64,000 nt of DNA from Alloascoidea hylecoeti (Eukaryota). Below are positions 1 to 64,000 of this stretch, piece after piece. Made by a program: the position numbers and the translations under genes. Within the stretch, counting starts at the first letter, position 1, and every line of letters starts with the position of its first letter. Where the stretch lies: the NCBI GenBank assembly GCA_001600815.1, contig BCKZ01000006.1, positions 807,048 to 871,047 on the forward strand, read 5' to 3'. The notes under the pieces were generated by a model. That model did not search any database and was not told where the DNA came from. It saw nothing but the letters and a program-made list of their open reading frames with translations.

Positions 1-415
1 AAATATAATATTTATTACTCGAGATCGATAATATTTTCAATATCAAGAATGGGTATTAAACCTGGGTAACTAAACAGACCTGGTGGTACTGCTAACACCT
101 ATATGAGCTATATACACAAGTCTAAAACTATATCCTTAGCTGGCGAATAAGCAGTGATATAGCATTACATTTAATTACAATAAAGTAGACCTTAACATTA
201 AGTTGTAAATAGTCGTGCTTCTTAATAAATAAATAACTTATATGCATGTATAAAATTTCGACATCGATGCCAATATTAGCTCATCGATATCGTAGATTAT
301 ATAAGTTGTAATGAAGTTTTTTTATATTATATTATGCTAGCTATGGCTATAGCTATAATCACAAGTACTAGTATTGAATCAATTAATATTGAATTCAATA
401 CAGGTACATGATCAT

Positions 416-950
416 TACTGCCATTCCACTTAATTTAGGCCACATATTCGGCCCCTTTTCATTAATATTAATTAAACATTTATATACGTATTATAACTCA
501 ATATATATGTCCTAAGAAGGTATAGATAGTAATTTCTTATTCACAGGGATTTCTGTATTTCAGCATCTCTGTCGTTTTTTACTTTTGATAACAATTCTAT
601 AGCTCTATCCAACTTGCTGTTTAGATCTTCAAACGTAATGGTTTCTTACCTGACATTCTTGAATTTAATTAAACAAATATTTTTCTTTTCTACGTATTAC
701 CTAAATGCTCTAGAATTATTTATTTGTATATAAATTATTATTGTTAAAATTGTTAAAGTTATATTAAATGAAAACAACAAACTAGGTTACATGTAAAGAT
801 AACTAAATTTAAATGAGGATTGAATAAGTTTTTACTTGCAAGCTAACGTTAACCTTCATGATATCAGTTTACTTGTGACAATATAATTATACTTAAGTGT
901 AGAGAAAGTAATTCATCAAGACGCGGCCGAAATTAAGTGAAATGGCTGTA
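416..950. mobile_element. Non-autonomous Tc1/mariner-superfamily element (MITE-like), 531 bp between TA dinucleotides
   Basis: 418-443 CTGCCATTCCACTTAATTTAGGCCAC and 923-948 GCGGCCGAAATTAAGTGAAATGGCTG are inverted repeats (22/26). TA flanks both ends (416-417, 949-950). No intact ORF inside. Confidence 0.75.
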
Positions 951-2718
951 TGTAAATGGAGCCATTTTAATTAGATATTCCTTACATTAATTTTAATTAT
1001 GAAGATATACCAGTATAAGCTTATAATATAATTAAAACTCAATTGCAACTTATTCATATTAATAGGTGCAGATAATAATAATAAGTATATAGGTATTAGC
1101 TTCTTAAGTAGATGTGTTAATACTAAATAAGTAATAAGTATAAATAAATATTTAATTAATCAATTATAATATGCTAAATCCATTATTATATATCATTGGA
1201 ATTATACATATTAACCAGGGAAAAAACTCTTCTCCTGAAAATTAACTCATAATTATATAACTAGTATATGTTCAAAGAATAGAAATTTCAAAATCTTGCC
1301 AACAGATGGATCCGCCGGATGCCCCTGATAATGAAAAATATATATAAGCTAAAATTTAATGACTGTATATTATTATATATATCCTTATAGCTATAGCCCT
1401 TTGCGGTCGTGAGATACTGAAATTTATAACGTTAATACTAATACTAATATATATCAACTATTATCAGAGAGTCCAATATTATATGTGATTGGAATATACT
1501 AAAAAAAGAATTTTCAAATCTCGATGCAAGTGATTACAGATAGGTAGAAATATGTGAAACACAACACATTAATCGGTACACATTTGCATTGAGTATGAAT
1601 TCCCATAATAAATTATAAGCTATAAGCTTATAATAACATCTATATAACTTATAATTATATAGATTTAACCCATATCTAGCAAGGCAAATGCAAACTTCTT
1701 CTCGGTATATAAGCCTTATAAAGCTTTAGATCAAGTACTTATCACGATTACAATCTATGCTATAAGCTTAAGCCATATATATAAATTATAGTCCATATTT
1801 GTTATAGGACTATTCCTATATAGCTACAGAATGTTTTTTTCATTTATCGACTAAAAATATATATAAATAGTAATAATTGTGTTTAATATATATATAGGTA
1901 TTGTAAGTTGTAACCGAGTATTATAGGTATATCTATGGCAAATGTAGGTATACCGGTGGTGCTGAAACTAAATCAATTATTACTTTTTTTTGTCACCTTT
2001 TACAATCAATTAATTATACCAATGATAAATCTGAAATCAATATAGTTCTGGCGATAAAATATAAGTTGATACAACCGGTACCCTTCATCTTCATAACTGG
2101 AAAAAGTTATATACCTTACTTATAACTATAAATATATAATCAATTAAGCTATAATTAAGTTTTATATATAAATTCTGTTTTTAGAAGAAATGCAGTCTAG
2201 AACTTTCAAAGTAGATATGATTAACTATTTGGCTTAATATAAGCGTAAGTAAACTTTTCCAATATTAATTAATTATAAGATGAGATTATAATTTGCAATT
2301 AGATATAATATCAATTGCAATTATAAGTTTATACTTGCAATTGGATATATATGACAAAGCACACACACACAAGGTATATACATTATACTTATAATTATAT
2401 ATAAAACTAAAACTTCATAACAAATGCATATTTTTTATTACCACGAATGCCATCTTCATCTTCGTGTCCGGTACTATTTCCAAAATAGTTTTGTTTAAAA
2501 GTTAATTGCACTTCAGAATCACAAAAATATATTCTTTTCAAGTATCTTATACTATATCATATAATTATAACTTGTAACATTAATATCCATATTTTTAGCG
2601 CAGATATTAAGAATAAGTTTATAAATACCAGTAAAATATATCGAAAGAATAACCCGTTGAGTATCTCTGTATAGGCGATAATTTCGCTTGCTGAAATCAA
2701 GATTATAGTATTTAACAT

Positions 2719-4773
2719 TTATTCAACAATAGGAATAGTATATGTTGCAGGAAACATACCCACTCTTCTATCTACTGTTTCACCAATCCACCATTTATCA
2801 TCACCTCCCTTTTTACTAATTATCTTAACCTTATCTCCTACTCTAAAACAGAGATCTCCAGGCTGTTCACCATCAAATGAATGAATCGCAACAAGGTCGA
2901 AAGATTTTTCTTGCTTTTCTTCCTGTGAATCCAATATCACGGTATTATCATCACTGATGTCATCTTCATCTTCGTCCTCAATACTATTTCCAAAATAGTT
3001 TTGATTTATGCCATTAAAACTTGATAATAACGCATCTACACTATCAAATTTGTTGTAATCCTGTTCACCAGAACCCGAATATTGGCGTAAGGATCTCAAT
3101 AGTAACACAAGTGTAGCACCCGAACAGGAAGTTAATGCTCTTGCAAGGAAGATGTTATGAGTATCATGTTTATCTTGCTCAAATGTTGTTGTTATAGGGC
3201 AATATCCCAACACAGTTTCACTTGGTTTCACTATACCAAAATTAAAGCTTCTTTCACTAATTGAAAACTTACGACCTGGACTTTTCTGCCCCACCAAAGT
3301 GATCGAAGTCTGGTCAGACTTAGGAGTTTCGTATCTGGATCTAGAGATAGGAAGAGTTCTAGGGCTGGTGGGGATTTGTATGCTAGGAAATCTCAGAGAC
3401 TTGCCATTAATAGGGGACGAGGAATTTGAAGGACTAGATGCTTTTCGAAAAATGTTCCAAGAACTTATGCTCTTACCACTTATATTGCTTACAGTGCTCG
3501 TAGTGCTACTACTAGACATGGATCTGTTTCTTGCACTTGTTCTTGGTGGCGGGACTCCTGGTAATGGAGGAGTCGAGACTTCCGGGACGTGCTTCCGAGA
3601 GGGTATTGATACCGGAGATGAATGTCCCCCCGGGAGATAAGTTGAAGTCGAACGTCTAAAATTAAATGGTTGTTGGAGAGGGTCTGCATCATTCTTAAAC
3701 ATTCCTTCAGATTGGTCAGTTGGCTCCACATTATGCGTTATAGACATCGTTTTCATATCCAAATGGACTTTGTCCTGCTTTACCGTCTTCTTGACGACAT
3801 TGGATGTAGCCGCTATAGTTGATGTCATGGCCAAAGTTAGTTCCCTTTTAATTTTGTCAGACTTCGTATGCTTCCATATCGGTGTCTTGATCACATTACC
3901 GTTGGAAATATGCTGTAGGGCTTCCGTTTTTGTTTGAATCGATTCGAAGTCATTTTCCCATTCATGGCATATATCTTCGTAGTCCTGTGGGGTCTCAGTC
4001 ATCCGATGCCCATATCGTTGAGTGTACAATTCGAAGTTTTCTTTCCATATTCTAAATATATCAACTTCAGTTTGGTAGACAATTGATGTAGTAATATACA
4101 AAAATTCGGTAATCTGACTAAAGCATTGGGGTAATCCTTTCCTCAACTTAGCATCAAGTTTGAAAAATACATCAGAAGCTTCATCCAACTCAATTTCCGC
4201 TTTTTGTAAAGATTCCTTTTCCTTGTCGGTAAGACCTTTCTCACTCTCAGACTTATCGTGCAACTTTTCGACGGTCTCGGTGAATCGTTCATAATCAATT
4301 TTTTTGTGGCCTCTTTTCTTCAGTGACTTCTCCACTTCCTGCAGATATAGTGCCATTTCCTTGCATTTTAACACTACAAGTGTTTCAAGATTCCCTAATA
4401 ACGGCTCAGTTGCTACTTTCACTGAGTTGCACATTCCCCTGTAATCTTGGAGCTGTTTCATGGTTATAGATGGAGTAATTTGGTGTTCTCGTGGGGTCTC
4501 ATTTATGCTTAAATCTTCTTTCTTGAGATCCGTAGGAAGGTCTCTGTAAAGTTCCTCGTATAACTCTAGTATTTCCTCATTGCGATTTTGCATATCTCTC
4601 CAGGCTTTAACGTGGATGCCAATTTGTCCTGTAATAAAAGTTAATCCGTTGACTGTAGTTGCTATATCTTTTGACCAATCCGTAACTACTTTGTCGTCAG
4701 TTGTCTTGTCCCCAATGTGTCTCAGTTGATGCGGTGCACGGGCTAGTGCTTTCTTTGCGCCTTTAAAAGACAT
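2719..4773 (-). CDS. Amphiphysin/Rvs167-like N-BAR + C-terminal SH3 protein (divergent paralogue), 684 aa
   Basis: N-terminus MSFKGAKKALARAP resembles Rvs167 helix 0. BAR-like KKRGHKKIDYER. C-terminal SH3: AIHSFDGEQPGDLCFRVGDKVKII...WWIG...GMFPATY. Confidence 0.85.
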   Translation of the reverse strand: MSFKGAKKALARAPHQLRHIGDKTTDDKVVTDWSKDIATTVNGLTFITGQIGIHVKAWRDMQNRNEEILELYEELYRDLPTDLKKEDLSINETPREHQITPSITMKQLQDYRGMCNSVKVATEPLLGNLETLVVLKCKEMALYLQEVEKSLKKRGHKKIDYERFTETVEKLHDKSESEKGLTDKEKESLQKAEIELDEASDVFFKLDAKLRKGLPQCFSQITEFLYITTSIVYQTEVDIFRIWKENFELYTQRYGHRMTETPQDYEDICHEWENDFESIQTKTEALQHISNGNVIKTPIWKHTKSDKIKRELTLAMTSTIAATSNVVKKTVKQDKVHLDMKTMSITHNVEPTDQSEGMFKNDADPLQQPFNFRRSTSTYLPGGHSSPVSIPSRKHVPEVSTPPLPGVPPPRTSARNRSMSSSSTTSTVSNISGKSISSWNIFRKASSPSNSSSPINGKSLRFPSIQIPTSPRTLPISRSRYETPKSDQTSITLVGQKSPGRKFSISERSFNFGIVKPSETVLGYCPITTTFEQDKHDTHNIFLARALTSCSGATLVLLLRSLRQYSGSGEQDYNKFDSVDALLSSFNGINQNYFGNSIEDEDEDDISDDNTVILDSQEEKQEKSFDLVAIHSFDGEQPGDLCFRVGDKVKIISKKGGDDKWWIGETVDRRVGMFPATYTIPIVE

Positions 4774-6077
4774 AATTTTTCCGAGGAATTAATTCTCTGC
4801 TTTGTGTTTATATTAACTAATCTATCTCAGGGGATGGACGAGATAACTCCTTGGGCACTTGTGCTTTGTAACTGAAAATATGCGTTAAACTTGGTATTAG
4901 GATTAAAGGAGAACCTCCCGAGGAGCCGAAGTGGTTACTTCCGGGACATATCGCAACTATATTAATATGCCTATTAATTAGCACTATTCTTTAAATTATT
5001 AATTATTATTAATATTCACTATAATTAACTTCTATAGGATTTATATAACTAGACATTATTTTTTTATGTATTTTTTATATTTATTTACATTTAAATATAC
5101 TTATATAAACATTATGGAGACAAGAGATAAGTTATAGGTCACAATCACCAGTATAAAGATAAACGGATATAATATACCACAAACATATGCATGTTTTAAT
5201 GGAGGAAATGACCAAAAAGAAAAGAATCCCAATTGCAAAAAAGGATCGTAGACATATCGATGCTATTCAATAGCATCCAATATTTTTTTTTTTTTTTTTT
5301 AAAAAGGCAATTATAAGTAAAGTAAACAATATTGTTAATACTAGAAAGACACATTCACAAGCAAAGATAAACCAAAAAAAACATAAAGCCCAATTAAACA
5401 ATTAAACTGTCAAAAAAATAAAAAAATAAATAATAAAAAAAATAGAGCAAATTAATAAATATAGGAATAAAAACGAGTGTATAGAGACAAGGCTCAACTA
5501 TACAAAAAAATTATTAAGAAAATTTTCATCATTTTTCTTTTGAACACCAAAATAAAAAGATTCTAAATCCCAGGAATTGAAGGCATGTATAAATTATTAG
5601 TGTAAAGTATTAATCGGTAAAACTGATAGAGTAAAAAAGATAAAGTAAATAGTATATTAAATAGGAATAAGAAAAAGTAGAGAGTTAAATCCAATGGATT
5701 TAACTGTCTTATATATGTAACTATATAGGCTAAATAATAATAAGGAGGTGGCAATAATATTAAGGGGCTTGCTGTAGTATATGAATGACCACGTAACCCC
5801 TGCATATCTAATATGCAAGGCATGTAGTTTAATATAAATCTGAAACATATGTAGATCATTTGATGATTGATCTGCACTGCATATCGGATATGTAAGCATG
5901 AAATAAGTTAATTAAAATTGAAATAACAACATAAAGCAACAATTGTTCATGATCGAAGTCCTTCCCTTCTAGAAATACAATGAAGCCGCCGAAAAAGAAA
6001 AAAGTGAGCGCAAAAATACGCTCATGGTTAGACAAACTCCAAAAGTCAGTATCAAAGTCAAAGTAAATCGGTTACAA

Positions 6078-7382: not shown

Positions 7383-7659
7383 CTTAAATAACTAAATTGT
7401 TTGTATGTGTAGGTATGAATGTTAATTATATGAAATGAATTGTTTTTTGACAGCGAAGGTAGGGTGGACTTAAATAATAAGTTCAGAAAAGAAGGGAAAG
7501 CGAATAAAAGTAAAGACGGAAGGGACAAAAAAGAGGGAATATGGCATAGTTTATAAGATTTAGAGGAGTAGTATGAACAAGACGGAATTTAATATTAATA
7601 TAATTGATGAATATGATAATAACCGATAATTAAGGTAGCCCTTATCCCTTCTTCTTGTA

Positions 7660-8230
7660 ATTATATTACTCTCATATTATTCTCTGGTAATTATTCTTCG
7701 GGCTAGGTATACACCAATGTAACACAAGGCACGTATGCACTGCATTGATGCTTGTTCGTACGATGTGCTGTGATATGTATATTATAATACAACTTATGGG
7801 ACTTTTTTTTCACTAAACACTGCGTGTGCTGTAGAAAAGTATTAAAAGTATCACAATATGCATTTGAGACATACTCGCTTGCCTATTGAGGTGTCAAACA
7901 TAGTTATGGGCCATGCACCCCCTAAGTAGGGAAGAAGAGGCCAGAGCTATGATGTTATGTTCTCATTAATATGTTATCAGCCAATATTAATATTATGAAA
8001 TCTATCACGTTGTGTTTATAATAACCGATGGAGTTGGTCCTCCCTTCTCGCGTCAACGTCCGTAAGCAATTACAACTGTGTGTCTGTTCATAACTAAACA
8101 TCCAACGCTTCAGGAAACTATCCCGGTTCGTGGTCATAATATCCACCGTAGGCATTGTCTCTTCATTATGTAATCATTAGGTAGTATGTTTCATGATGCC
8201 ATGCCAAACTGCTAATTTGTGTTTGATTTT
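7660..8230 (-). mobile_element. Decayed Tc1-family transposase relic
   Basis: Minus-strand fragments in Tc1 order with frameshifts and stops: KRQCLRW (~8160-8140), KRWMFSYE (~8110-8087, cf. V-I-FSDE), RGCMAHNYV (7923-7897, cf. WGC), AYCDTF, VLHWCIPSPKNN..II* (~7725-7672, cf. WPxxSPDLNPIENIW). Boundaries approximate. Confidence 0.6.
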
Positions 8231-11200
8231 TAGTGGTACTTCCTACCAACTGTAGCCATATTCTACAACATCCATAACGTTAAATTTTATACGAGCCCTA
8301 ATTATAAATATAAATCTTATTTATAGAATTAGAACAGCGGGTATACACTTTTGTCTAGGCTCCGTCTAGACTATGGTCTGATCATCGAGTGAGGTTATAA
8401 TCTAGATCTGGAAAAATGACACTATTAATCTCAATAGGATTAGTACCATATCAGTGGTTATATTCTATAGCTATAGCTACTATAAGTTATATCGCACATT
8501 AGTAATGTGCTAATGATACCGATAGATTATACTGTTATAGTTGCTATAGCTAATAAACATGTACAATTAATATATTAATATTAATGTACTATTGTTAACG
8601 TTTGGAATTGCAATTCTTAAAAACTTATTCGGGTAAAAGTAATTATAACAATTGCAAATTCGAAGAGATTTAATATTAATATATAACTGTAATTAAGTCC
8701 AGATTTTTCCAGTAATTATAACAATTACAAATAGTCGTTTGCTTAATTGGAGAACAGACAATTAACAATATAATAATCGATAACATACTCTTAACTTAAT
8801 AGTAGGGTGATAATCAATATCGTATATTTAGTCACAATGGACCATAACACTATTATGGTAGTTTCCACAGTGTTCCCTTCTGATATAATAATGGAAATAA
8901 CTTGTATAATTAATTAATATTAATCTTTTGAAGTAATATTTCCACAGGTAAAACCCTAACTTAGTTGTCACCCCTTAATTAGGTGATAATTCAAAGACAC
9001 TATTAGCCCTATAGCTATAGATAAAAAGGAGCGCGCGGCATACAGAATATCTTTCTCATATTATAGTGTGACAAGCATTTTTATTCTTACAATTGAGATA
9101 TATAAAGAAACTGACTCGGCTAAGGTTCAAAATGCTTGAAACTTTTATAATATGCTATATTAATATATATATATTATACATTATACATATGTTCGTGTGG
9201 AGCCAGTTGCAATATTGAAAATGGGGCCTTGCACACTTGTAAAGGAATTTTTTTGTTAATTATATTTAAATTTAATGAGAAGATGTACGATGTGTATATT
9301 AGAAAATAAAATATAACTAATATAGTATATAGCATATAATTATTATAGCCAGTAACTAAATAATAAATCTATACTAGTATTATGTTTTAGATACTGATAC
9401 TGATATACTTTACCTGGGGAGTCCGAACTAACGATGAGATTATATGTAAATAATGTAATGCAATTGACAATTTTACACACACTTAGTTTAACTTATAAGG
9501 GGCTATAATTTCTAATTATTGTTGATATTATTGTAACAATACTATAGCTCTATGATCAATGCTACCTCATCGTGGCATGGTGCGTTTGATTGAGATTGTT
9601 TCACCTGAATTTTGTTACTAATACCTAAATTTGCCCTGAAATATACCGACTTTAAGCACTAGCTATATTGACTTAAATTATTCAAATAAAACTTTTAAAA
9701 AGGGTCAATTAATGCGAGCAATTAACAAGAAAGTTACATTTGAAAGATTTAAAGCTTTAAATAAGGTACATATTATAAATTCAATATACTAGCTACTATA
9801 ACTATAGGGTAAGTTGCATACGAGCTCCATAACCAATTTTTTTTAAAAATTTAACAAATTTATCTAATACCTATATGAAAGCTACTCATGTTAGGTCTAG
9901 TAGCTTTTTGTTTTGAAGATTGTACAAGCATTTGGGGTCGTTCACCAGAGATGATTTTCTGAGCTTACGGTTAAGGTTGATAGCACACTCACAGTTTTGT
10001 ATGTAACTTTCTCTATATAATAAGGTGTCCGTCATTAGGAGTTAAAATATCTTTAGCTTCAATTGTCTTGTGAGATCTATAACCAAACTCTAGTAATATA
10101 TTGAAATCAGTTGGAAAGATATTATAATTTATTGTTATCTAAGAATGTTACAACCTTTAGAAGGCACCAAAAATTACTATATACAGTATTATACACCTAC
10201 TGCAGATACTTATAATCTCAGCAGATGCTATACTGTAAATTGTATTGTGGCTGATAAACGTTAAAATTGAAGAATAAATTAAATGCTGTAGCGATACAAC
10301 AGTTACAAAAAAACTATCAGCCATAAAAAAATATTTTCGTGACATAACAAGCAAAATATTTAGCTATACATTCTAATTATAAGCCTTGATTCAATTCAAA
10401 AGTTATACATATAACTGATATTAGTATATTTAATAATAAGCCTTTTAAAATTCAAGAATTGATATATAATTGTCGCAGGTTAAGCTTAACTTAATTATAA
10501 AATGTCAATATTATTTCTCAATTGCAATGTCCTATATACAACATATATTTTACATATACGCATACGGATATATGATATATTTTCCTCTATATTCCGGGAT
10601 TATAAATATATTGATATAGTTAATGAATACTATTGAATAGAGTGATAAATCGGTAAAATTGCGGTACTATGTGCATTCTAATTAACAACCATCCGTGCTC
10701 TTAAGATTTTTTAAGAAAAGATCATAATTCAAAAATTATACCCACGTGCGTCAGGATCCTCTGTCTTAAGGATATCACCTAATATTGTGAACACATGTGT
10801 AATTATAAGGGAGCTAATAACTTGACTATTTATTAGCTACTGGTAGTGAGTCTGACATGTTGAATATTTTATAACTTAAGCTCCAATTGAGAAAAAGTTA
10901 TATAAATATTATACTAGTATATGTTACTGATTATGTTATCTTTCCTTAATTTCCTTGAGAATATAAAAGGAAAATACCTGCGTTCATTACCTGCATCTAA
11001 TATCAAATTATAATAATAATCATAATCTGTTGTATAAAACCTTCGATTAAATCTTGACTTTACGGATGCTATATATTCAGAATTCAATATTAATTGTTAA
11101 AGAATAAGTAGCTATATGTATACTGGTATATATTGATCATCGCATATAGTCGTGTATTAAAATTGATCGGGGGGTATATAGCTATGGAGTTACATATTAT

Positions 11201-14200
11201 ACTTAATTAAAGGTTATATTAATATTTGCTCATCGCATATAGTTATAATATGCATATGGCATCAAACTCGACGATGTTGCAATTTATATACTACATCTAT
11301 ATTTGCATGTCTCTTAATACTTTGAATACATGTAATTCTCATGCTATTCCCCTAATATACACCAGAGCCTTTAACTAATTTGCATCACTCACGTGGACCT
11401 CGGGGAGCAGGATAGAAACTTTAGATCAGATAATATAACTCCACAAGTAGATCAATTTTGTAAATTCCTGGTAACATTTATCCGATGTTTGCTTCCTAAA
11501 CTATTCTCGTTCAAATCTTCAATTAACTCTCTAAATTACTCAGAAATGTTATATGACAAATAACTATTAAATATACCGATATACCATAATCAATAGTGTG
11601 TACATCTCCGAGCTCGAGTGGTCTTAATATTTTATTCGCAATTGAGTGAAAGTATTTTATATTTTTCTTTCATCTTATCATTAAAGACTTATAAAGCTTA
11701 TATTAGCAATAGTGAATCTGAAACTACTTTTTGATAAAATTATGTATAATTTTAATTAATATTAATATGATAAAGGACATAATATCCAAATCTGGTGTAT
11801 TTAAATAATCAGTATATTTTTGTATTTCAAACTCACAATTTGTATAAAATCATAATCTTCAAATTAAATTTTGTAGATAGTGAGTATTTAAATATAGGTT
11901 AGGAATCTAAATTGAATATTAATCAGATATGTGGTCTATAGGCCTATATTATAGTTACATATATTTTATGTATGGCAGAATATTCTTCTTAAGATTAGAG
12001 AATGTTAATGCTGTTTGATGCCACATTATTATAATTAATAGTAATATATGATCACGATTCACGATATAGATATAACCTTATAGACTTTCATACTTTTCCT
12101 ATCAAAATGCATTTTTTCTGTAAGAAGAATTTCCCGCTCTTATCGATATGATTATCGTTATCAGCTAACGACTTACGCACGCACCTTTATACCGGTATAT
12201 AATTGTGAATTCTGATAAAAAGATCAAGTGTTGTGTATAGGCATTATTATAAGTTATATCATACCGGAGTAATCCATCTTTAATAAAGAAGAGTTCTAGT
12301 TTATGATAAAAACAAAATGAAAAATGTGGCGAAGAAGTGAACCGCTCCGCAATTGCAGGGGAATATTGGTACTCGAAAGCTGTCGACAGGGGTCGTGCAA
12401 CTTTTTGACATAACAAAATATTAATAAAATTTTAAAGAGATTCACGATAAAATAGCTCTTCACCTAATGTTTTTATTAAATGCTCAATTAATTTTCTCCT
12501 ATATATGTGAAAGAAAACAGAAAACAAATATATGATTAAACTGATGAAGAAACATGATAACAAAATAATAATAATTAAATATAAATGAACTATATTTTAC
12601 ATCAATTGCAATATACATAATATCAACAAACACAAAAGTTTCTAATTTATTACTATTTATTAGTATTATCGATCGAATTTACTCCATAGATCTATATAAA
12701 TACCAGCTTATATGAGTGATAATATATTTACTGTATGCACTTGATATATAAAACTATAGCTATACTTTTATCTACATTGCGCAATACAAATTAATTAATT
12801 TAATATACATATCGGGTTTATAATTTATATTGGAGTAACCAAAAACTGCAATTGTTGGTGTAGGTTTTCTAATTGAATACATTATGATTAATTAATTATA
12901 ACTTAAATTGTGAATTTACATTATGTAGCCGATGTGTCAATATCCATTGCATTTTTGCAAATAACAGCCGCTATGTAATGTGTTAAGTTGGCCTAATTAC
13001 CGATTTTTTTCCTTTTTATTTTCCATCTACTTCGTAATTGGATGAGATATGATGTATAGGTATGCTGCACTTTTTTTTTACACATACTGGCTACCGCCAT
13101 TAATGTAGTTCAAATATATCGGTAATCTTTGGTTATCAATTGCCAATTACAGAGTTTGACTAGACTAGCTTTATGGTAGATCATGGATTGGTAATTGTAC
13201 GTAGTGATACTAATGAGCGTGCGCCGTGTGACCACTTCATAGTACTTCATACATGTATTTCTCGGAAAAATTGTTAATAATAATTATACATCAGTAGTTG
13301 TGAAAAAAAATTCTGTTGTGTGTGTGGGGGGTTGAAATTAATTAATTATTATCAATTTATCATTATTACATTAAATTTTACTTCAGTATGATCAGTATGA
13401 AACAGTATTATCACACTAGCAAATTTTAATATATTTAAGAAAAGTAATGAAAACATTTAAAATATTTTTTCTTTGTCGAAGTTTCGATGACAAGAACACA
13501 TGTAAATCTATATCACAATTTAGGAGCTCAAAAGCTCTCCGGTTTAAACCGTAACTGATTCACTGATATATCCTTAGATAACGTTTAATAAGAGTACAAC
13601 TTAAATGTTGTAATGGATTAGTGATGACAAGGTACCAATTTCTCAGTATGGTACTGAATAATATCCTCAAGTCTTCATTGTCATTTGCCAATTGCAATAT
13701 TTATTTGAGCGATAACATCTCTCCCTTCTATAGCGAAAGAATTTATGACAATAGGCGAAATTAACAAAAAAGTAAATCATCGGATATTTCAATAATCATG
13801 AAATGAATTTCTTGTTATACCCTAGTGTCAGTACCTAGGCCCCGTTATAATTGTTAAATTTATGCTTGTAATTGCAAATGGAGTACCAACAATCGGTACT
13901 TAGAGGCATGACTGTGACTGTAGTATATGGTAGTCGTTTCATATCTATATGAATAAAAATTTTACATTTAAAAATGAAGTTGAGGTAGCTGGATCATAAG
14001 TGATATTTAGTTGGGGGTAGTTAGCTATACCTTCCAATATAAAGTCACTTAATAAGTCAATGCATCAAATTTTAGTTTTTTATTGTAGTTTGCTATTTAT
14101 TGCCTAGCTATATGCGAGTTCCAGCAAGCGTCTAAAATTCCATTTCACTTAAATAGTGTTCAATAATTTTAACATAGTTAAAAGTACTATCAGGATAACT

Positions 14201-14666
14201 AAAAGCTGTTAAATTACAATTACAATCTCATCCATTGTTGTATTCAATAGATAATAAAACTAAAAAAGTGTATTAATATTGCAATTGTTAATGAGTTAGT
14301 ATATGTAAAATATTCTGAGTTCTGATGTGAGTACTTGTAGCTGATGCCAGTAGCCGGTAGCTATACCAACCCCCCACTTTCAAAAGTAATTAATTACAAG
14401 TGCAATTGACGAGTACTCTAAACTATTTAAATTCACAATTGAATCATAAGACATAACAACTAGCAATTAAAAAGATATTGGTGATGACCTTTTCCACGTG
14501 ATGATGCTAGATCCTGTTTCATGCGTCATAAAGATCTAACAATACAAACAAACAAAGCACATAAACTTTTTTTTGATTCTCCAAATATAAGATTTCCATT
14601 TCCTCATTTTCTTTTTTTTCCTTTTCTCCATTTAACACTTTCAGTCATATTTTTTTAAGATCTAAA

Positions 14667-15715
14667 ATGAGCGCTGTCTTAAGATCCATAAGATCGATTG
14701 TTCCTCTTATTTTACTTGCAGGGTATGTGTAACATGAATATGCATATTTATTGATGTCATAATATTAATCTTTTTCAAAAGAGCAACGTTGATGCTTCTA
14801 TTCATTGTTTTGAGCGGTGGAACTGAACATCGACCATTTAATCGATGGTACTGGCTTGAAGCTGATACTTCTTCCATTGCGGGAGCACCGGATACAACAA
14901 GATGGACTACTTACAATTATTGTGATGCCACCACTGGCATTAATACGGACTGTTCACACCGTAAGGCTGGCTTTCCATTTTCTCCAAAGGACAATTTTGG
15001 CACCACCGATGGTGTTCCATCTCCCTTTGTTGATCATAGAAATGTAAGTTATGATAATGTTTAAAATTGTATTCCGAATCGAAATATGAATTGCTATTCT
15101 CGACATACATGTGTGGGAAAACAGAATTATGATATCTGAATATTGATATTAACCTGCTTTATTTATTTCTAGTATTACTATCATACGTCTAGAGCTGGAT
15201 GGGCCTTTTTTTACATTGGTCTTTTCTGTACTGTAATTGCCTTATTCATTTCTTCTTGTGCTTGCTTTACATTCTTAATTGGAATTATATCAACTATAAT
15301 AACGGCTTCAGCACTCGTTTCTACTATTATTGCCGTTGTTCTTTATACTGTTATCTACGTCAAGGGAAGGAACAAATTTAGAGATGATGGTGATCATGCT
15401 AAACTTGGTGTAAAACTATTTGCATTTGCATGGACGGCAATTGCTTGTCAATTACTATCATTAATTGCCGGTTGTTTTGGAAGTTTCTTTGGAAGGGAGA
15501 AGAAGGAACAACAAAATGAATATCCTTATGACACATATGATGATCCTGTTACTGGAAATCGTGGACCTTCATCTGATACCGATAAAGAAGGGAAATCTTC
15601 ATTTGAAAGAGAAAGCGGAAGGCATGGTAGTAGGGGTGTTTCATTCTTTAGAGTTAGAAAAATGAATGAAGCTGGCGAACAACTCGAAGAACCTCAAACT
15701 GTTGCTGTTCACTAA
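14667..15715 (+). CDS. SUR7: SUR7/PalI-family tetraspan eisosome/MCC membrane protein, 286 aa; exons 14667-14722, 14782-15043, 15173-15715
   Basis: Introns GTATGT..AAG (14723-14781) and GTAAGT..TAG (15044-15172) join in frame. Motifs WYWLEADTSSIAGAP-TRWTTYNYC, FPFSPKDNF, YYYHTSRAGW, AKLGVKLFAFAW. Confidence 0.88.
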
Positions 15716-17359
15716 ATTTAATGATCATAAAAATCAATCAACAAAAAAAAAAGGGAAATTGAAGAAACCTTAGCGCTTAGGTATAATTGAAACCAAGATT
15801 CAGAATAAGCTTTTAATTTCTTCATAGTTTGTCTGGGGTAAAAAAATATTCTTTTTAATAATCAATACAAAGTAAATCGCAAATTTCAAAATACCCTTCA
15901 ATTGATATTTGTAATTTATTTACCCCATAGTTATAACTTTTATTTTTTTTATATATTTTTCTTAATACATCCACTAATAATAACCATAAGATCTTATAAA
16001 TTTATAATTATAACGTAGGAAAACACAGACAAACTTAAAAATCTACAGGTTTGGACAAATAAGTAATATCAAGGAACCTTGGGAGGAACAAGCTTAAGGA
16101 TGGTGAGTAAACAAAAAAAATGACGTATCTATAGTATACAATTTATCGAAAATTTCAAACGATTATAGTTTCGGGAACTGTTTTATTTAACACAATATTC
16201 GTATATGTCTGCATTTGTACCCACAACATTAGTAATTAGGTTTCAACTTTAAGGTTTGATTGCTGACAAGTATGGATAAAGTAGCAATATGATTATATGG
16301 TCAGCGTGAAAACAACATGTTCAATCCCCCCGACAAGAAAGCTCTAAATCGCCGAATCAATGTTGAATGAGTTTGTCTTTCGACGGCAATATGAATATCA
16401 CATACCCAAAATTGGAGTTGTGACTGAATCATTGATATCGATATATATACCCTCAATTTATGCCATTCATTTCATATGGATTCTGACATCACCCAAACTC
16501 ATTCCTTTGAAGTTTCTATAATTATACACATGCTTTTAGATAAAGCGTAGATCTAGATATTAATCTTAAATGCCGAGTATTCAAATATACTGAGAACCAT
16601 GGCCAAAACCAAGAACAATTTGATTTCCATTAAATGTGGCGAGTTGTTTTTCAGAAGAGAAATCAACGTATAAACTTACATAACCTTTATATATGCATTC
16701 AGGATAGGCGTTAATCTGAATGTGCTACCGATTTCCGATATTTCATTTTTATTCTCTTCCTTTTCACTGCCACTCTCTTCTTTGTCATCAACTTTCTTCG
16801 CTCCATAATATTTTGTCTTCAAACTATCGAATATCATCAGCCGTCGTATCAAATAATTCTTATCTGCTTTTATTCTTCTTTTTTCTTTAACAATGAGTTA
16901 TATAGCATTATTTATGAAGGTTATTGTGAGACATGGATAGGAAATCTCTGGATAATGTATACCCAAATGCTAACAATAATAATCCTGGGTAACTAAACAA
17001 GTAGTTAGTAATGATTACATTCAATATCAAATATAAAATGTTGTTGTCTCCCAAACCTATTGTCGATTGCATTTAGAAGTGGACATTCCCAGAATAAAAT
17101 ACCTTGAAAAATATACGGTATATCTTTATAATATATTGAATGGTTATATTTTATTATACAAATGGTTACGCGCCATCTAAGCTATTAACAATTTATTCCA
17201 ATTTTGTATACATCTTCACTAATAGATTTCAATGATGACGCTAAACTGTCCAAATTTGTAAAGTCTGTTACTACATCTTTGTCAATGGAGAGAATTGAAC
17301 AAATTTCAAATTTCTATCATCTACAAGTATACTATAGGCTTATATGAAGTTATTATCAA

Positions 17360-19023: not shown

Positions 19024-19073
19024 TTTTGAATGTTTTTTACGGGGCCTTTTGGTTTCCAAAGAAAAAGAAGAAG

Positions 19074-19123
19074 GAGTCATAAAAATATTTCACTTTTAAT
19101 TTTTTTTAGGTGTTGCGCACGTG
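19074..19123 (-). promoter_or_regulatory. GUA1 upstream motifs: TGACTC (Bas1/Gcn4-like), RRPE-like TGAAAATATTTT, TCACGTG (Cbf1-like)
   Basis: GAGTCA at 19074-19079, AAAATATTTTCA at 19081-19092 and CACGTG at 19118-19123, all within 100 bp of the ATG. Motif match only. Confidence 0.4.
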
Positions 19124-22397: not shown

Positions 22398-24009
22398 TTA
22401 TAACTTTTATATTGTTTATATTATAGAGTTAATAATTGAATGAACACAAATCTTAAGATGTTTCACATATATATATAAGATATATTTTATCTTACATTGA
22501 TCTCTATTACAAAAACCTCTTTAGTTTATTTTTATTTTTTTATCTTACATTTGACTTTATAGTATGTAGAAAACCATCTCTTATTTATAATCTTTTGTTT
22601 CTTTTTATATTTTCTTAGTGAAATTACAAACTCTTTGATGGACTCTATCTTTTAACTACAATTCAAGGCTTATATATATATATATATATAATTGTTTTCT
22701 ATTTTTCAGCATTCGTTGATGTTGCATGCTTAATTGAAAGCCATGGGTATACAAATAACATCATGATCATTATAATCATTTTCATATATGATGACATTTC
22801 AAATTTCTGGACTATTCTTTTGTTACTTTAGGTATATATATATATATATTTTATACTTATATGCTTTTATTTATTTTATATGATTATACTATGTAACTCT
22901 TGTGAAGATACTAATAAATAATACAGTTTATATTTGGAAAAAGACTAAGCACTAGTAGTAGCTATAATAATAACATATTTTTTTCTTCTTTAGGCTATTT
23001 CTTTCTTTCTTATACTACAAATTTAATAGAAGATGCTATTTTTTAATTTCTCACCATACATAGTGTATAGTCATGAATCATATATAGCCGAAAAGTTTAT
23101 AGTTTATAGTTAATGATATGTTAACTACGAGAATACACAACTCACATTAACACTTTTCAACAATAATCTAATTTTGGCAAAAACAAAAAGTGGTACCTGC
23201 GTCTAGGCCTATATTGAGATTTAAGTATTCTAGAGCTGTTTTTTCGATTCGAAACTTAATGTATAAAGAATTTTACAACTTGATCATGAAATGATCTACC
23301 ACGCAACTCATCAGGTTAACTAGCTAAAACTAAAGTGTAAAGCAGTCTCATTCATATTGAACTTCAACTAATATGATTATATCTTCACATACATACGTTA
23401 CATGATCACTTAAACCTATATGATCATGATCAAAGAAGAGATATATTACAAGTATACTACGGTTCTTACTACTATAAGGTCTTACACTTATGTATATATT
23501 TTGTAAATTTGAATTCCTAATTCTTGAGATTTCAATTGATCGCGATATCGCAATTGGTATAACTCGTAAATGCTTCCAGTATCTGGACTTCCGAATATGG
23601 CAGTCTATAACTGCGACTGATAATTATAGACAATAAATTCTTATTTATTGAACAAATTATTCAGTTTATGGCAACATCTACAACATTTCTAAGGAATAAT
23701 TATAATTTTAAATATCAAATGAGTTTATAATTAGTTTCATACTATTATATAATTAATTAATATTATGGAATTGAAATTAAGTGAGCTGCCCGAAAAACTC
23801 ACCAGTTGTAAATATGTTTGTTTTAATTATATTATCTCTAGGCTTTTAATGTAAATCACTTGGGCGCTCAAATTATATCATGACTAGCTAGAATTAACAA
23901 TATTTTGAAGGGGTTATTTCATTAATGGTCCATCTTGATCCATATTATACAGAAAATATAATTATTAGACCCATATGGTCCCCCAATTCATGCTATTATA
24001 TTCTACAAA

Positions 24010-24805
24010 GACTGTAGGCAGATTTTTGATAGACAAGTTAATTTCAATCTATCGACAGTATTAGACACTTCACTAAAGCCGATAAAATAAAAAGTGCAGA
24101 GAAACGATTTTGGGCCTCCTATCGCAAGATTTTTGAAAAATTAAACCCCACGCAGTGTGAATATTCTTCATGCGATTAAAAGGACAAACTCTCTTTATCC
24201 CGAACTCCGTAGCAGAAAGCCAATTGCAATAAATACTCCTATATCCACAAGGCACCTGGTAGTACGTCTAGCGCTTGCTGACCGTGATTTTCCGTTGGAA
24301 AATAACGCGAAACGATCTCCCATGCAACAGTGCCCAGATACAATGCAGGGAAGTTCATCAAATCGTAGAAACCTTTGTCCAAAAGTTTAGAAACAAGATA
24401 ATATTTATGCAAGATAATGCCCCTATTTACAATATCAAGTCGTGAGTGGTGTGAAGAGGAGGGGATTGAAGTGATGGACTGGCCTGAGGATCTGATACCT
24501 AATTGGGAGTGTGTGAAAAAATTATCAACAAAATAATCCAACTTTTATAAAACTACAAGGACGTAGAGAAAGGATGGCGAATTAACTTCAGCAATACACT
24601 AGAAGCATTTTCGATATTTTAGGTCCAAATTTCTAATTAACTCTACTCCAAAATTATGCCGTAGAATGGCGAATATGCTGGATGATCGCTTGGAGAATAG
24701 TGGTGGCCATGTATCAGCCAAAGATTCATTCTAATATGCTGTAAATGACATAATTAGATAGAGTAAATCCTTTCTTTTCCTCCATACAAAGTATTTGCCT
24801 ACATT
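24010..24805 (+). mobile_element. Decayed Tc1-family transposon, internally deleted
   Basis: ELRSRKPIAINTPISTRHLVVRLALAD (~24202-24282); IIFMQDNAPIY (24398-24430); after a frameshift REWCEEEGIEVMDWPEDLIPNWECVKK (from 24441); ENSGGHV (~24693-24713). Weak possible TIRs: TGTAGGCAGAT at ~24013 and ATTTGCCTACA at ~24793. Confidence 0.8.
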
Positions 24806-25456
24806 AACAAATTTTATGAGTGAATTAATATGTAAACGGTAGTGGTATTTGTATGTGACTGTGCTCTACTTAAACAACCACCAATATCACCAAAAAATAT
24901 GAATCCATTAACTATGGATATTTTATATATACACTACTTACCCCATTAAATCATCCTGATAATTTTCTACGAGTTCTTTTGTTTTCAATTCATGGTTGGA
25001 GTGTTTTGTCTTGATTTTACTGTGTTTTTGATGATATTTATCTCAACTTTGAGAAGTTTTCCTCTTAGTAGGCTTTTACCATGCCATCAATACTTTATAG
25101 GTTTTGTGATTCATTATTATCTCAGCGGTATAGCCTTTTTTGAGTCTTCATTGGAAGCGGCATATTTTTTTATTGGAACTTAACATTTTATTTCTGTTTT
25201 CTCTTCATAAGAGAATCTGGCATTTTAGTTATATGGGAAATATCAATATGCATAATAAATGCCGTATTCCCAACTGTCAAAAAGTCATAAGAACTATTGT
25301 CAACTGCTCTCAATGGCGGTATAATTTTAGTAGATTTCGACACCGATTATATAATTAAAAATGGGTCAAGTTAATTATCGATTGCTTATAATATATGAAT
25401 AATAAGTATAGAAACAACTACAATTTCAAGTTACGTAGTTTATGTATGAACAATGC

Positions 25457-25485
25457 GATGCAACGTGATGCAACGTGATGCAACG
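25457..25485. repeat. 10-bp tandem repeat (GATGCAACGT)x3 in the STU1 promoter
   Basis: GATGCAACGT GATGCAACGT GATGCAACG read directly. Confidence 0.85.
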
Positions 25486-25598
25486 CTTACATAATTCACA
25501 TCTTTGGAGAATTGTAAACAAATCAAATCAAAACAAAAACAAATTTGAACCTCTTTTCAACAAAACATTCCTTATCTCACAACAATATACCCCCAAAG

Positions 25599-35915: not shown

Positions 35916-36799
35916 ATTATGTTCTGGTAAAGCCTTAAATTTAATGACAATTGTACTTATTTTATCATATATTTTATTTTATGAATTTATGTTTATTCTC
36001 ACCATAAAAATTACTTCAAACTTTTATGTTACACTACTATTTTTTACTCCTTTTATTCGTTTTGCATCTTTATTATTATCTTCATTATTCACTTGCAATT
36101 GTTATGTTTTCACATTGTTTTACTCATAAATACTATATATATTATCAGAACCAAACCAAAATTGAGTATTCTTGATGCTCCATATGCATTCAATTTAAAA
36201 ATATGTAATAATAAAAAGCTGATAACTTCTTATTTTAACTTTCAATTTCAATATGTCTGGGGTCACATTTCCATCTCCTCCGTTGATCCTATATAAACGT
36301 GTACTCTTTCTAGCATTTTCAGGTTTAATTGCTGATGATAAGCGTTGTAACATCAGTTACATTTATAAATTTAATTAAATACGTGATAATTGCCACACAT
36401 AAATATTTTTCATATGCACTTAATCATCCAAGATGTATTCATAATACCAACAACATCCACTCAATATATCTACTCAATATAAGCTTGATTTCAACTTTAA
36501 GCTTTTATATAACCTGCTATCTAACTATAACTATATAATTTCCAATCCGAATATTGAGGAGAACGCTTATAATATTTAACATAATAAGTTCAAGTAGTCA
36601 TGAATCATGATCTAACCAGACATCTAACGATATATCGCTTAATTTTCACTGGTTAGCTAGTTAACGTTATAATTAATATTATATCAACTATAATAAATAA
36701 AAAAATAGATTATAATACTCAATTAAAATTAAACGTAAATTTTAACCAAATCCAAAGATTGTATAACCTTATATACGTAAACCGGACAATTTTGTATGA

Positions 36800-37699: not shown

Positions 37700-38300
37700 A
37701 TCATGGAACTCACAACCACAGATTCATTTAAAAATAAAAAATAAAACCGATCCTTGACCTTTTTGACACGACCTTCCATTCTGGCTAACTTTGGATACGT
37801 TTTTAGTCACCCTTCAAGCTTGTGCCAAACGGCTTTTAATGGGATTTAGATTGGGACTAACATAGCTGTTCCATTTGATTTTCCTCCTCTTTTTTTAGGG
37901 ATTAGAGATTGTCTTGTTGAAAAAATATCACCTTTAAAAACTTGAATAAAAGGTATTCCTACCCGTTATAATACTTCTTTGATAAGCACCTCTTCCCTGG
38001 GGCTTCTCCGTAACAGAAGAATCGAATACCGTGTGTTTTTTTATCGGATTTTTTTGTTATTCTCTTATTCAAGCCTTATTATCTCTTGAAGATAACTTTG
38101 GTGGCCTGTCACTTGGTTTGGTGTACTAGTAACTACGGTTCAAGATGTATTATAATGATTCTAGATGCATCTCGCGGTATTTTGTGGGCTACCTACAAAC
38201 CCATGCTTTTAACGTAAGTATGGCCTGACCCGAGGAAACAGACGGGAGATTACTTTTGTTCTTTGGTCAGCCAAGTTATTCAAAATCTATTAAGATTTCT
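37700..38300 (-). mobile_element. Decayed Tc1-family transposase relic
   Basis: Minus strand, in order: VKSMGL*VAHKIP (~38210-38170), KEVL*RVGIPFIQ, FQQDN (~37922-37908), SPNLNPIK (37858-37835), a frameshift to VWHKL, then MEGRVKKV (37779; cf. MPRRxxAV). Confidence 0.78.
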
Positions 38301-60158: not shown

Positions 60159-60268
60159 ATTTAAATTTTTTTTTTGTTTTTTGAATTTGGAGAGTACCCC
60201 ACCAGTATTTATTATGACCGCCACTTCAGCCGCACTTACTAATCGAGACATGTAAATATGTAAGAGGA

Positions 60269-60279
60269 CCCCGCTTTTA
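60269..60279 (-). promoter_or_regulatory. Mig1/CreA-type glucose-repression site upstream of ACH1
   Basis: Minus strand TAAAAGCGGGG (AT box + SYGGGG), about 110 bp upstream of the ATG. Confidence 0.45.
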
Positions 60280-60558: not shown

Positions 60559-61660
60559 TATAATGGTTGTTCCAAAGCTTATGACTGGTCCAAGGTTTCT
60601 GGCACCCTTCTTCAAAAAGGTCCACTCGGTGTTCTTTTCATGATCACCACTCCACAACTACCAATAATGGTGAAATCCACAAGATCACTCAAAGCCCTTG
60701 CTTAAAGTGACAAGGATAAGAGAGTAGTAAATACCATGGCAAGAAGTCATCTTGAGCAAAATACATTGATTAGCTAGATTTCTAGGGACACCGCGAGCCT
60801 GTACAATTATCATTTATCTTATCAATGATGTACAATCCAGATCAGCAGCTAAATAAACGTTCTCAACTTGGACTAACTCCGAAGATAATCGGATAACTAC
60901 GGTGCCATTTTATTGTTTTATTAATCAAGTTGGTGGACCGAGGAAATTCAGAGGAATGAGCACCCTCAACCCACCACAAAACCAACCAAGAACCACTCTA
61001 TAGGCCATTATGTGAATTATTATGGGTGGTTGGATTTCTCAAGCGGAATCTAAGGATCGCTGTCTAAAAACCTAAGGAATACCAGCGTATAGTTTCTTCA
61101 ACAGTTACCCCTTCCACAGGTTCAACAAAAAGAACCTTCACGCACATAAATCAAGTCAACGGGCGAAAAAAATAACTTCATACCGGCGATAATATATCTA
61201 AGGAGTAAGTGATTAACTTCTATCATCATCTAGGGATTCAGGAAAACTGAGATTTGGCCGCTTGATCGGAGGATGAAGGCGAAGTCTGTTTCTATGGATA
61301 CATCACCACCATAAGATAACTTAAGCTCGATGAATAAGTTGAAAGAGATTATACCAATTCAGATGCAGTGGGAGAATTAGATTGAAAACTAGATCTTTTG
61401 GTGGCAAGAATGGCTGATAACTCACGGTAAGCAAAATATCTCTGCATAAAACAGGGTGAAAAAGAAAAATAAACCCCCAACTTGAAAATAGAAGAGCGCG
61501 TAAAACTATGTCAGGAAAATTTAATCGGCAAAGTAGTTTATTAACCGTATACCTAGTGAATTCATATTTTTTGATGATGTTGAAGGTTGTTTCGTTAAAC
61601 TCCTGTTTTTCAGGTATTAAAAACCTTGGACCTGTCAGAAGCTTTGGCATAACCTTTATA
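60559..61660 (+). mobile_element. Tc1/mariner transposon remnant with both TIRs, about 1.1 kb
   Basis: 60559-60606 and 61613-61660 are inverted repeats (35/40 over the outer 40 bp, 39/48 overall), each ending in TA. Internal decayed fragments: SDKDKRVVNTMARSH (60706-60750), IMGGWIS, QQ/NLHAHKS (61123-61153). Confidence 0.82.
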
Positions 61661-62439
61661 GCTTCCATAACTCAGTTGATGAAAATTAGTAAAACTTTAG
61701 CTAGCTATTTGTATCTAGCTATATCTAGAATGTTATTTATACAAAATATTGTAAAATTTCTGCTTGTTATGAGTTGATAGTTTTGTAATTGTAGTGTACC
61801 AGTCACGCCAGTTACAAACCGTCATAATATAAGTCTATAGCTTAAGAATATCAATAGTAATAATTGAAAGTTTAAGCTTATTTAATTTAGACATTTTCAT
61901 GTTTAGCTATAGCAAACATTTGAACGACTAAGATTCCTGTCCCTTAATTCAAATTTAGTTTACAATTAATTGATGATATCACAGCCATTATTTTCGCAAA
62001 TAATTCAAGGCTCTATATATTTTTAATGCCCTGTAATCGCTATTGTAATTAACGCTCGTGCTAGAAATCTTAAAATAATTCATTAATATGACATATGCAT
62101 ATATTTTGGTTTGTACGGCTGGAGTGCGGCTGAATATGCTGCATGAAATAATTTGATTTTAGATCTTTCTTATATTGGGCTAGCGCTAATTAATCAATAA
62201 TCAAATAAAATCTCCGATGAGAAAGCTTTTAAAATCGAAAATTAATTAATGAATAATCGCAAAGTTTTGAAGTGCAACAGAACACTCTATATATGCATGG
62301 AAGTTTAGCCAACGGTATTTAACTACAGTGCATACATCTAGGTATAAGATCTTATAATTATAAGATTATACCAGTATAGAGTATAAGTTTATACCTTAAG
62401 ATTATATCAATTATACCGGCGCCGGATTGTGATTTGAAA

Positions 62440-63110
62440 TGTTAACGCCTGGAAATGAACCAAACTTATAAAGTAATATTTATTATAATTATGACATGAG
62501 TAGTTCTAGCTACTAGTTCCTATTATAACTCCTAAGAGTTGGGACTCGGGAGTGTACATGTAATTAATGAGATTATCAAATATAAAGCGGCCATGGCCCA
62601 TGATTATAATTATAAATTATCATGCGAAAGGCGTCGGATTCTGATTGAAATTGTTAATGGTAAATGCAGCTTGCGCTATATAAGGCTTATAAGGTCCATA
62701 TTGATCAAGTTAAAATTAATATTTGACCCATATATTACATTGTTAATTGGGGCCCAATTTGGGGGTAACCAAGGTTTGTGAATATTAATATAAAACGGTC
62801 TAGATCCGAAACTCATATCTGATAACTGTGTTGATGAAGGATATTAAAATACTCTTAACTTATTAATTAACGTTAGTAACTTAGTATGATATCATGATAG
62901 TACTGTACATGTATAATCTCTCATTCGAAAAATTTGAATATAAATTGTGTATCTAGTTATACACTATTTGAGAGCAATAAAATATAAATTTTAAATTTAG
63001 CTATGTTTTGTGTTCTATGATTATAATAGTTCTGATCACCCGAAGATGCCTGAGACTAACGATCCCGTGAAGCACCTACAAAAAAGGCTACAATTATTAT
63101 GCATAGTACA
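62440..63110 (+). mobile_element. Heavily decayed Tc1-like transposase relic
   Basis: AKGVGF (~62625-62642), IVNGKCSLRYIRLI, LDPKLIS (~62800-62820; cf. DNDPKHTS), MPE...GY (~63047-63090), in Tc1 order. Confidence 0.45.
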
Positions 63111-64000
63111 ATATACCCTATATAATTACCTTGCAATTGGAAGAAAATAAACGTTACCATTAAATACATACGACAATAATGTTTATCAGCTGTGCCATAT
63201 AATTGTAATTCACATATATATATATATACATCGATATCGATTACAAGTACTAATATCTCTATATAATGTTCTAATTAGAAATATATACTAATTATGATAT
63301 TAGTAGCAAGCATATGCATATAACTATTCTTTCAGTTAAGTAATGTAACCTATATAGAAATCAAACATGTGTTTTAATTACAAAAATTCTAGAGATCCTG
63401 AAAGACTGATTGACTGCCTTAAGTTTTCAAATCGTTTATAAGGTCTTAAACCTACAACGAGGGAGCAAAGACAGTATATATACCAGCCACAGGTAGCAAC
63501 TATCGTGCTGTGTAACGGACAATATATAATCTATTATTATTCCTTTGGCTAGAGGAGATGTGTCCCAGTATTAATATTTAATTATAAGCTCAAACTCAAA
63601 AAGCCTGAGATACTGATATCGATGTCGATATTAACATAAAATATTGTCATAAATACAATAGAAAGCCTTTAATTATAAGACAAGTTTAAGAGAACTATAT
63701 ATAGTATGCATATACGTAATTATAAAAGAGTCTCATATCTAAACTCTCATTCCACTTCAACTATATATATTGTTTTATTCTTTTGATATTTTCCTAAACG
63801 TTAACACTTCTTACTCAGATTTGATTTTAAGTTCAAGTGTAGTTAATCTATAAAGATATGCTCAACATATTTTCTATTTGTACAACTGGCTCGGTTATAT
63901 GCACCATCATCGCAGGAACGTTCCAACCTCGTTTGAACTATGTAAACAAGTCTGTTGCTGGGATAAGCCCCGCATTTCTTTCTTGTTGGATTATTGGAGA

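Follow-up and report, generated by a model that had tools for sequence, protein, structure and literature searches.

A 3-bp inverted triplication underlies the genome-wide excess of short palindromes in the non-coding DNA of a yeast and may be a transposon excision footprint

In joining of the RAG type, P nucleotides form even-centred palindromes. RAG1 belongs with the EnSpm and Transib transposases to the CMCT clade, which is defined by DDE, C(2)C and H(3-4)H motifs and spans target-site duplications (TSDs) of 2-5 bp (PMC12730594). HzTransib is reported to carry out RAG-like cleavage with hairpin formation, some Transibs produce 3-bp TSDs (10.64898/2026.08.26.747230), and the hairpins form on flanking DNA (PMC2803484). 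The hAT elements Ac/Ds likewise leave palindromic P-nucleotide additions that are taken from the flanks and joined by microhomology, although hAT palindromes, as far as these sources describe them, are odd-centred on the complement of the border base, heterogeneous and known from single donor sites (PMC5873905, PMC4561436); in C. albicans, Ac/Ds gave 28 footprint types among 128 (PMC5873905). Here we describe a motif of related but distinct geometry, which is even-centred, has a single 9-bp product and occurs genome-wide. It was recognized in a stretch of 64,000 nucleotides (contig C6, positions 807048-871047, of the 24.8-Mb, 136-contig assembly G000; hereafter the window) and takes the form u-rc(u)-u, in which a 3-bp unit u is followed by its reverse complement and then by u again. 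Judged from sequence, the host is a Saccharomycotina yeast with no close relative among annotated ones; the malate dehydrogenase encoded in the window is at most 82% identical to the other proteins listed, the best named of which are from budding yeasts of several orders. Below, C-numbers denote contigs of G000, L-numbers examined loci and X-numbers sequencing runs.

The first-pass annotation of the window had described its intergenic DNA as saturated with chains of interlocking palindromes. The excess is real, and all 12 strings quoted as examples are present where they had been placed, but "saturated" overstates it, because exact 9-mers that contain G or C have a non-coding density of only about 2 per kb. 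Five of the 12 strings hold an exact 9-mer, two a one-mismatch form and five a two-mismatch form only. TAGCTA, singled out for its abundance, occurs 40 times in the window, with 38 non-coding copies against 11.8 expected from an order-2 Markov model. The non-coding part of the window holds 1393 palindromic hexamers against 965 (order 2) or 1101 (order 4) expected, an enrichment of 1.44x or 1.26x, and the coding part is without enrichment (452 observed, 455 expected). This excess is genome-wide and confined to non-coding DNA. The non-coding observed/expected ratio exceeds 1 in 20 of 20 other 10-kb stretches (range 1.03-1.82), with pooled values of 1.35 (1.21 at order 4) for non-coding and 0.98 for coding DNA.

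As controls we used 20 scored loci of other eukaryotes, three further loci being too short to score. The eight closest yeast-like control loci lie at 0.78-1.37 with z of at most 1.5. One control, L037, reaches 1.53 for palindromic hexamers, yet is equal at every spacer. In the host the excess is restricted to spacer 0, and exact inverted repeats with spacers of 1-12 occur at 0.91-1.05x. Because long contigs from two sequencing runs of other studies (X3 and X4) match window positions 7401-27400 with 0-1 differences, the palindromes are not an assembly artefact. The data sets listed for this DNA include a wood-decay metagenome and none of RNA. The earlier proposal of a lineage-specific mutational process acting on neutral DNA is supported.

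The excess was traced to the single 9-mer motif. Palindrome centres lie 3 bp apart 4.7x more often than expected, and there are 26 period-6 duplications of self-complementary units against 0.7 expected. Our main count covers 286,721 non-coding bases in 61 stretches (the window and 60 of 10 kb), with coding DNA masked by long open reading frames (ORFs). It contains 473 G/C-containing u-rc(u)-u 9-mers where 47.8 are expected, and 53 of the 61 stretches are above expectation. The corresponding numbers are 69 against 6.2 in the non-coding DNA of the window, 26 against 2.2 in intron-like segments chosen by a loose pattern, and 6 against 5.9 in 40.7 kb of yeast-like control loci. Among the 1332 excess G/C-containing palindromic hexamers, 787 have an exact third copy of the unit and 448 a two-of-three copy, which places 93% of that excess inside a 9-mer or its decayed form. 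The chains of palindromes noted in the first pass are therefore u-rc(u)-u together with its longer arrays and decayed forms. Examples are listed in Table 1.

Table 1. Positions in the window of representative u-rc(u)-u motifs and of Tc1-like relics
Positions	Strand	Feature	Remark
283..63805	.	82 exact G/C-containing 9-mers, 69 of them non-coding	coordinate list
1040..1048	.	CAA-TTG-CAA, typical isolated 9-mer of the commonest G/C-containing class	
8465..8479	.	CTA-TAG-CTA-TAG-CTA, 15-bp period-6 array (repeat hit or later slippage)	
9009..9020	.	12-bp form, u=CTA	
23421..23432	.	12-bp form, u=TGA, among the first-pass examples	
36660..36668	.	GTT-AAC-GTT, within the first-pass chain from 36654	
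62352..62360	.	TTA-TAA-TTA, within the 18-bp palindrome of the first pass	
63230..63241	.	12-bp form, u=ATC, among the first-pass examples	
37743..38182	.	old Tc1-like relic, a reference copy for polarising 6-bp insertions in others	63-74% to other copies, DDE_3 loci included
24368..24988	.	old Tc1-like relic	60-63% to L108 and L239; end resembles 61482-61592

Strong enrichment is limited to the exact form with a 3-bp unit. The unit-2 form is at 1.04x and the unit-4 form at 24 against 7 (19 against 5, or 3.8x, in a separate count made alongside odd-centred forms), so that the excess amounts to 425 for unit 3, 14 for unit 4 and 0 for unit 5. One- and two-base P forms (P1/P2) are at 1.0x. Odd-centred forms of the hAT type range over 0.96-1.4x (0.96x for unit 3, 1.14x for unit 4, 8 against 5.7 for unit 5, and 0 for unit 8). 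Other arrangements of the trimer served as controls and gave 1.76x (mirror), 2.6x (direct) and 4.1x (complement), the last of which coincides with the true motif if the first and last bases of the trimer are equal. More than 20 of the 32 trimer classes take part in a broad spectrum that is led by CAA/TTG, with TAA/TTA second, and the bases flanking the 9-mers give weak signals only (A at -3, z 4.2).

Alignment of old repeat and paralogue families, in the manner that the first-pass annotation had proposed for decayed Tc1 copies, revealed that the motif arises by a 6-bp insertion that converts u into u-rc(u)-u. In alignments below 82% identity, 6 of 37 six-bp gaps hold an exact 9-mer, whereas among the 442 gaps of any other length only 5 do (p=5e-5). 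At L005:8900, for example, one of seven Tc1-like relic copies carries a TAA-TTA-TAA insertion, and further polarised insertions are located at L160:1339, L163:1817, L163:1720 (one mismatch) and L183:2764. The polarised insertions in multiple alignments include TCT-AGA-TCT, CTA-TAG-CTA and TTA-TAA-TTA, and a clean two-copy case at L207:6493 shows CTT becoming CTT-AAG-CTT. Copies with the empty site have no prior inverted repeat at the position. Thirteen candidate sites were realigned in all; one yielded no rows, and L234 (two sites), L238 and L176 gave ambiguous or negative outcomes. A three-base templated change considered for L176 turned out on realignment to be a single substitution.

These observations bear on several of the processes that were offered in the first pass. 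Context-biased deamination is incapable of producing the observed 6-bp insertions. Fold-back of quasi-palindromes, including their correction by template switching through loops from a near-perfect seed, is not supported, given the background level of spaced inverted repeats and the lack of a repeat at empty sites. Short-range template switching during replication deserves closer attention. A polymerase that switched to the opposite strand for 3 nt and slipped by 3 nt on its return would, on paper, give the same product with no transposon involved and no high transposon load required, and short switches that yield inverted repeats have been documented (PMC7954356). The local opposite-strand copy and the direct-inverted-direct layout are indeed shared with template switches and inverted triplications, but those events are reported to be variable, from tens of bases to kilobases, and usually seeded by an existing inverted repeat, and the mean switched length has been modelled at 10 nt (PMC7954356). 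The motif described here occurs 1-4 times per kb, and its unit is always 3 bp long. Nothing known sets the length of a switch to 3, and the absence of unit-2 enrichment, of spaced inverted repeats above background and of a pre-existing repeat at empty sites all speak against this origin, which we regard as improbable. ODIRA is grouped with the inverted triplications.

Once formed, the 9-mers appear to decay without functional constraint. The excess of one-mismatch copies is even over the nine positions (76-133), and the mismatch spectrum (C>T, C>A, A>G) is ordinary and AT-biased, which together fit point-mutation decay of perfect 9-mers. The excess per kb is 1.34 in convergent, 1.22 in tandem and 1.24 in divergent intergenic regions, and the density climbs from 0.9 to 2.4 per kb with distance from genes. 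This density away from genes and indifference to promoter orientation point to drift rather than function. The first-pass annotation had named selection for protein or nucleosome binding as its alternative. CACGTG is a possible bHLH site, and its enrichment as a lone hexamer in the window (8 against 1.9) is what such selection might produce. However, the motif is general in sequence, as dense in promoter-free regions as elsewhere, and evenly decayed, and selection is therefore already largely refuted as its cause and can be given very little credence.

Outside the window, the genome carries a candidate source of the motif. This is an element of the EnSpm/CMC type, 4,953 bp long (C39:80794-85746), which is accompanied by shorter derivatives; no copies are present in the window. 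CAC..GTG termini were recovered as seven end pairs among 17 pattern matches (the C39 element and six more), and these are flanked by TSDs of 3 bp in four cases (AGG, ACA, TAT and TTG), 4 bp in two and 5 bp in one. The transposase contains D152, D246, C265xxC268, H360, H515xxxH519 and E539, and so has the DDE, C(2)C and H(3-4)H signature of the CMCT clade. Its nearest proteins among the top matches listed are 23-37% identical. It scores 23.7 bits against PF02992 (Transposase_21), below the cut-off of 28.6, and 14 of the 15 best homologs scanned are above that cut-off. The upstream ORF (252 aa), which might encode a second, TnpA-like protein, is without a Pfam match. A sequence search of solved structures with the transposase gave no match, but a predicted model (pLDDT 83) finds RAG1 as its first structural match (E 2.7e-11), followed by ProtoRAG and HzTransib, all of them before unrelated folds, with VIA Z scores of 16.8 for RAG1, 11.2 for the P element, 9.9 for HzTransib and 6.6 for Hermes. 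The transposase is thus predicted to have a RAG1-like fold. CAC..GTG ends and the clade motifs are shared with fungal EnSpm/CACTA elements (PMC12730594; CNIRT6, 10.1101/2025.05.19.654958), which also have 3-bp TSDs, seen in four of seven copies here, and PF02992, matched here below cut-off. Those elements are described mainly from basidiomycetes and Mucoromycotina (PMC5751038). The element of this yeast combines TSDs of 3-5 bp within one family. Older relics of the element retain 57-88% protein identity.

Given these features, we propose that the motif is the excision footprint of an EnSpm/CMC-type, RAG1-like transposon, and we put the probability of this reading at roughly 0.65. The element would insert and duplicate a 3-bp target u, as is seen for four of the seven copies. 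On excision, judging from its fold and clade, the transposase would close the host DNA on either side into a hairpin precisely where the element ends. Host nucleases would then open the hairpins off-centre to leave u+rc(u) on the left end and rc(u)+u on the right, and the overhangs would pair in their shared rc(u) register before fill-in and ligation give L-u-rc(u)-u-R. By derivation, hairpins opened at distances of i and j bases from their tips would overlap in this register if i+j is at least 4, every such join would yield u-rc(u)-u, and longer TSDs would need longer hairpin openings. The net gain would be 6 bp, and the two palindrome centres would lie 3 bp from each other, as in the product observed. 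On the order of 10^5 such scars would have been fixed by drift in non-coding DNA over a long time, more slowly of late, with fewer in frame in proteins, and would then have decayed by point mutation. Consistent with a footprint, the motif is an even-centred palindrome that is derived from the flank, has a unit equal in length to a 3-bp TSD and is born by insertion. Hairpin-end repair after transposon excision is also the best fit among the four processes suggested in the first pass. The system resembles RAG1, ProtoRAG and HzTransib in its CAC termini, in the predicted structure of its transposase and in the hairpins proposed on flanking DNA, but those systems have a 5-bp TSD, and we found no report of their germline scars being fixed and building up genome-wide.

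Several observations weigh against this proposal. No site was seen in both states, once occupied by the element and once scarred. Footprints of Ac/Ds are far less uniform than this product, and our search, which did not reach older papers on CACTA footprints, found no paper on CACTA/EnSpm footprints or chemistry. The four 3-bp TSDs fit the trimer spectrum of the motif no better than background (likelihood ratio ~0.4), and three of seven copies have TSDs of 4-5 bp, yet the unit-4 and unit-5 forms contribute almost none of the excess. There are 64 12-mers and 23 15-mers, where simulations of independent hits give 17-46 and 1-8, and the long arrays therefore require repeat hits or slippage. Young scars are few although the element has young copies (93-100% protein identity). 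Young repeats contain no motif in 7.4 kb and two in 16 kb, both apparently formed by substitution, and an inverted triplication of 6 bp accounts for only one of the 79 young insertions that were polarised. Two young cases, in which AAA became AAA-TTT-AAA, could also reflect slippage plus one substitution. The isolates speak neither for nor against the proposal; they are near-identical across window positions 7401-27400, a stretch without the element, and none of the three small indel rows obtained there from X3, X4, X5 and X1 (mostly paralogue differences) is of the motif type.

Footprints of other elements fare less well than that of the EnSpm/CMC type. A hAT footprint, odd-centred and with an 8-bp TSD, does not fit the near-background level of odd-centred forms, and a Tc1/mariner footprint, a TA duplication around 2-3 element bases, does not fit a motif that is not TA-bounded or the unit-2 result. 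PIF/Harbinger elements target TWA. The second rank of TAA/TTA might suggest scars of a Harbinger-type element, and the 3-bp TSDs of some Transibs (10.64898/2026.08.26.747230) might suggest an extinct Transib-like family. However, PIF/Harbinger excision is reported to be precise (PMC4561436), which the net 6-bp insertion contradicts, and the broad spectrum is headed by CAA/TTG. A loose first look for PF13359 in G000 gave no candidate, PF05699 gave two weak matches, and a de novo CAC..GTG scan of the examined loci gave no further family with a TSD of at least 3 bp. We consider another element with 3-bp TSDs a highly unlikely source.

Alternatively, the hairpins might be made by the host. Breaks with a 3-nt stagger could be filled in, capped as hairpins by a domesticated or unknown nuclease or through altered hairpin opening, and joined by the same microhomology. 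Such a quirk would account for the very large count and the uniform product, and perhaps for the long imperfect palindromes present at several loci. In one repeat family, moreover, most young insertions longer than 2 bp (8 of 10 and 6 of 7) are tandem duplications of 3-4 bp. However, both u and a hairpin are needed on both ends, which a TSD and RAG-type excision supply for free, and no such enzyme has been identified, no search for one having been made. We rate this origin as rather doubtful; it and template switching, taken together, are unlikely but merit serious consideration beside the excision footprint.

Proteins may also have received the motif. Long ORFs contain 100 G/C-containing 9-mers against 71.8 from a synonymous shuffle and 54.4 from a codon-order shuffle, often in low-complexity stretches. 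This coding excess (~46) fits tolerated in-frame insertions, as far as sequence can tell, and templated substitution at synonymous sites was not adopted because such insertions fit it equally.

Across the 287 kb, the exact excess for all trimers is 972, or ~800 without ATA/TAT. With a non-coding share of 43%, this extrapolates to ~30,000 intact 9-mers genome-wide. Simulations fit with 0.015-0.02 events per base, spread across a long period, which would correspond, under that model, to 160,000-210,000 events and perhaps 9-12% of non-coding bases. Against an observed ratio of 0.57, the simulations gave 0.46 under a long steady state, 0.53 with ages of 0.05-0.5 and 0.64 with ages of 0.1-0.4; the observed one-of-three class (0.11) was matched by no simulation run. 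A sharp burst was dropped because the simulations support only a process that is long-running and lately slower. Since young repeats are nearly without the motif, either its formation has slowed lately or young repeats were spared. The yeast substitution rate is near 2e-10, and by our own arithmetic ~1e-4 events per genome per generation would then suffice, which a few active copies could reach.

We found no description of a genome-wide, fixed 3-bp inverted triplication in the literature searched, mostly at title level; precedents of a general kind exist in hairpin footprints, in RAG-type chemistry and in short template switches. We lean slightly towards the broader view that a RAG1-like EnSpm transposon left on the order of 10^5 excision scars of the same type in one yeast lineage, making up about one-tenth of its non-coding DNA along with some in-frame two-residue protein insertions. 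If so, the 9-mer would serve as a k-mer fossil of earlier CMCT activity, readable in any genome, and indirect evidence for RAG1-like cutting by EnSpm/CACTA transposases. A footprint origin would also mean that lifetime transposition can be measured by scars rather than surviving copies, that a compact yeast genome can grow through excision repair alone, and that the apparently intact transposase of this fungus offers a way to test CACTA/EnSpm cleavage chemistry. If the motif is not a footprint, it points to an undescribed mutation process of fixed geometry. The change from u to u-rc(u)-u is a sharp, countable indel signature, and, either way, motif finders would take these palindromes for regulatory sites.

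Other features of the element and its relatives were noted. The C-terminal part of the transposase (L103:1093-3405, on C39; residues 587-755) aligns weakly with the BAH domains of DNMT1, ZMET2 and ORC1 (Z 5.9-6.9), and might possibly act as a chromatin reader. Broken element copies in L121 (C17) and L122-L123 (C41) form inverted repeats of 300-760 bp beside assembly gaps. Two of 14 element flanks, the right flanks in L128 and L133, have a G/C-containing 9-mer or 15-mer no more than 15 bp from the end, which hints at repeated hits at the same spots. Four open DDE_3 frames of 432-445 aa (L110, L112, L113 and L114), with 73-81% DNA identity, are possibly a domesticated Tc1-type gene family, and a 1007-aa open frame in L117 (C11) with a weak hAT dimerisation match is possibly domesticated as well.

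Long imperfect palindromes occur in L016, L022 and L106. An 825-bp repeat family (L173-L202; 49 matches) has a T-run at one end, adjoins tRNA-like sequence in L173, and has young insertions that are mostly 3-4 bp tandem duplications. Within the window, the gene at 17360-18934, which we take to be GUA1-like, has a second copy of ~87% identity in all matched runs, and 40103-41455 has a 73% paralogue in L213. A very young repeat at 5608-5931 (324 bp) is identical to L011:4654-4977 on another contig. Finally, 2435-2496 is an 82% copy of 2945-3006, a fragment of the neighbouring SH3-like gene that lies just downstream of that gene.

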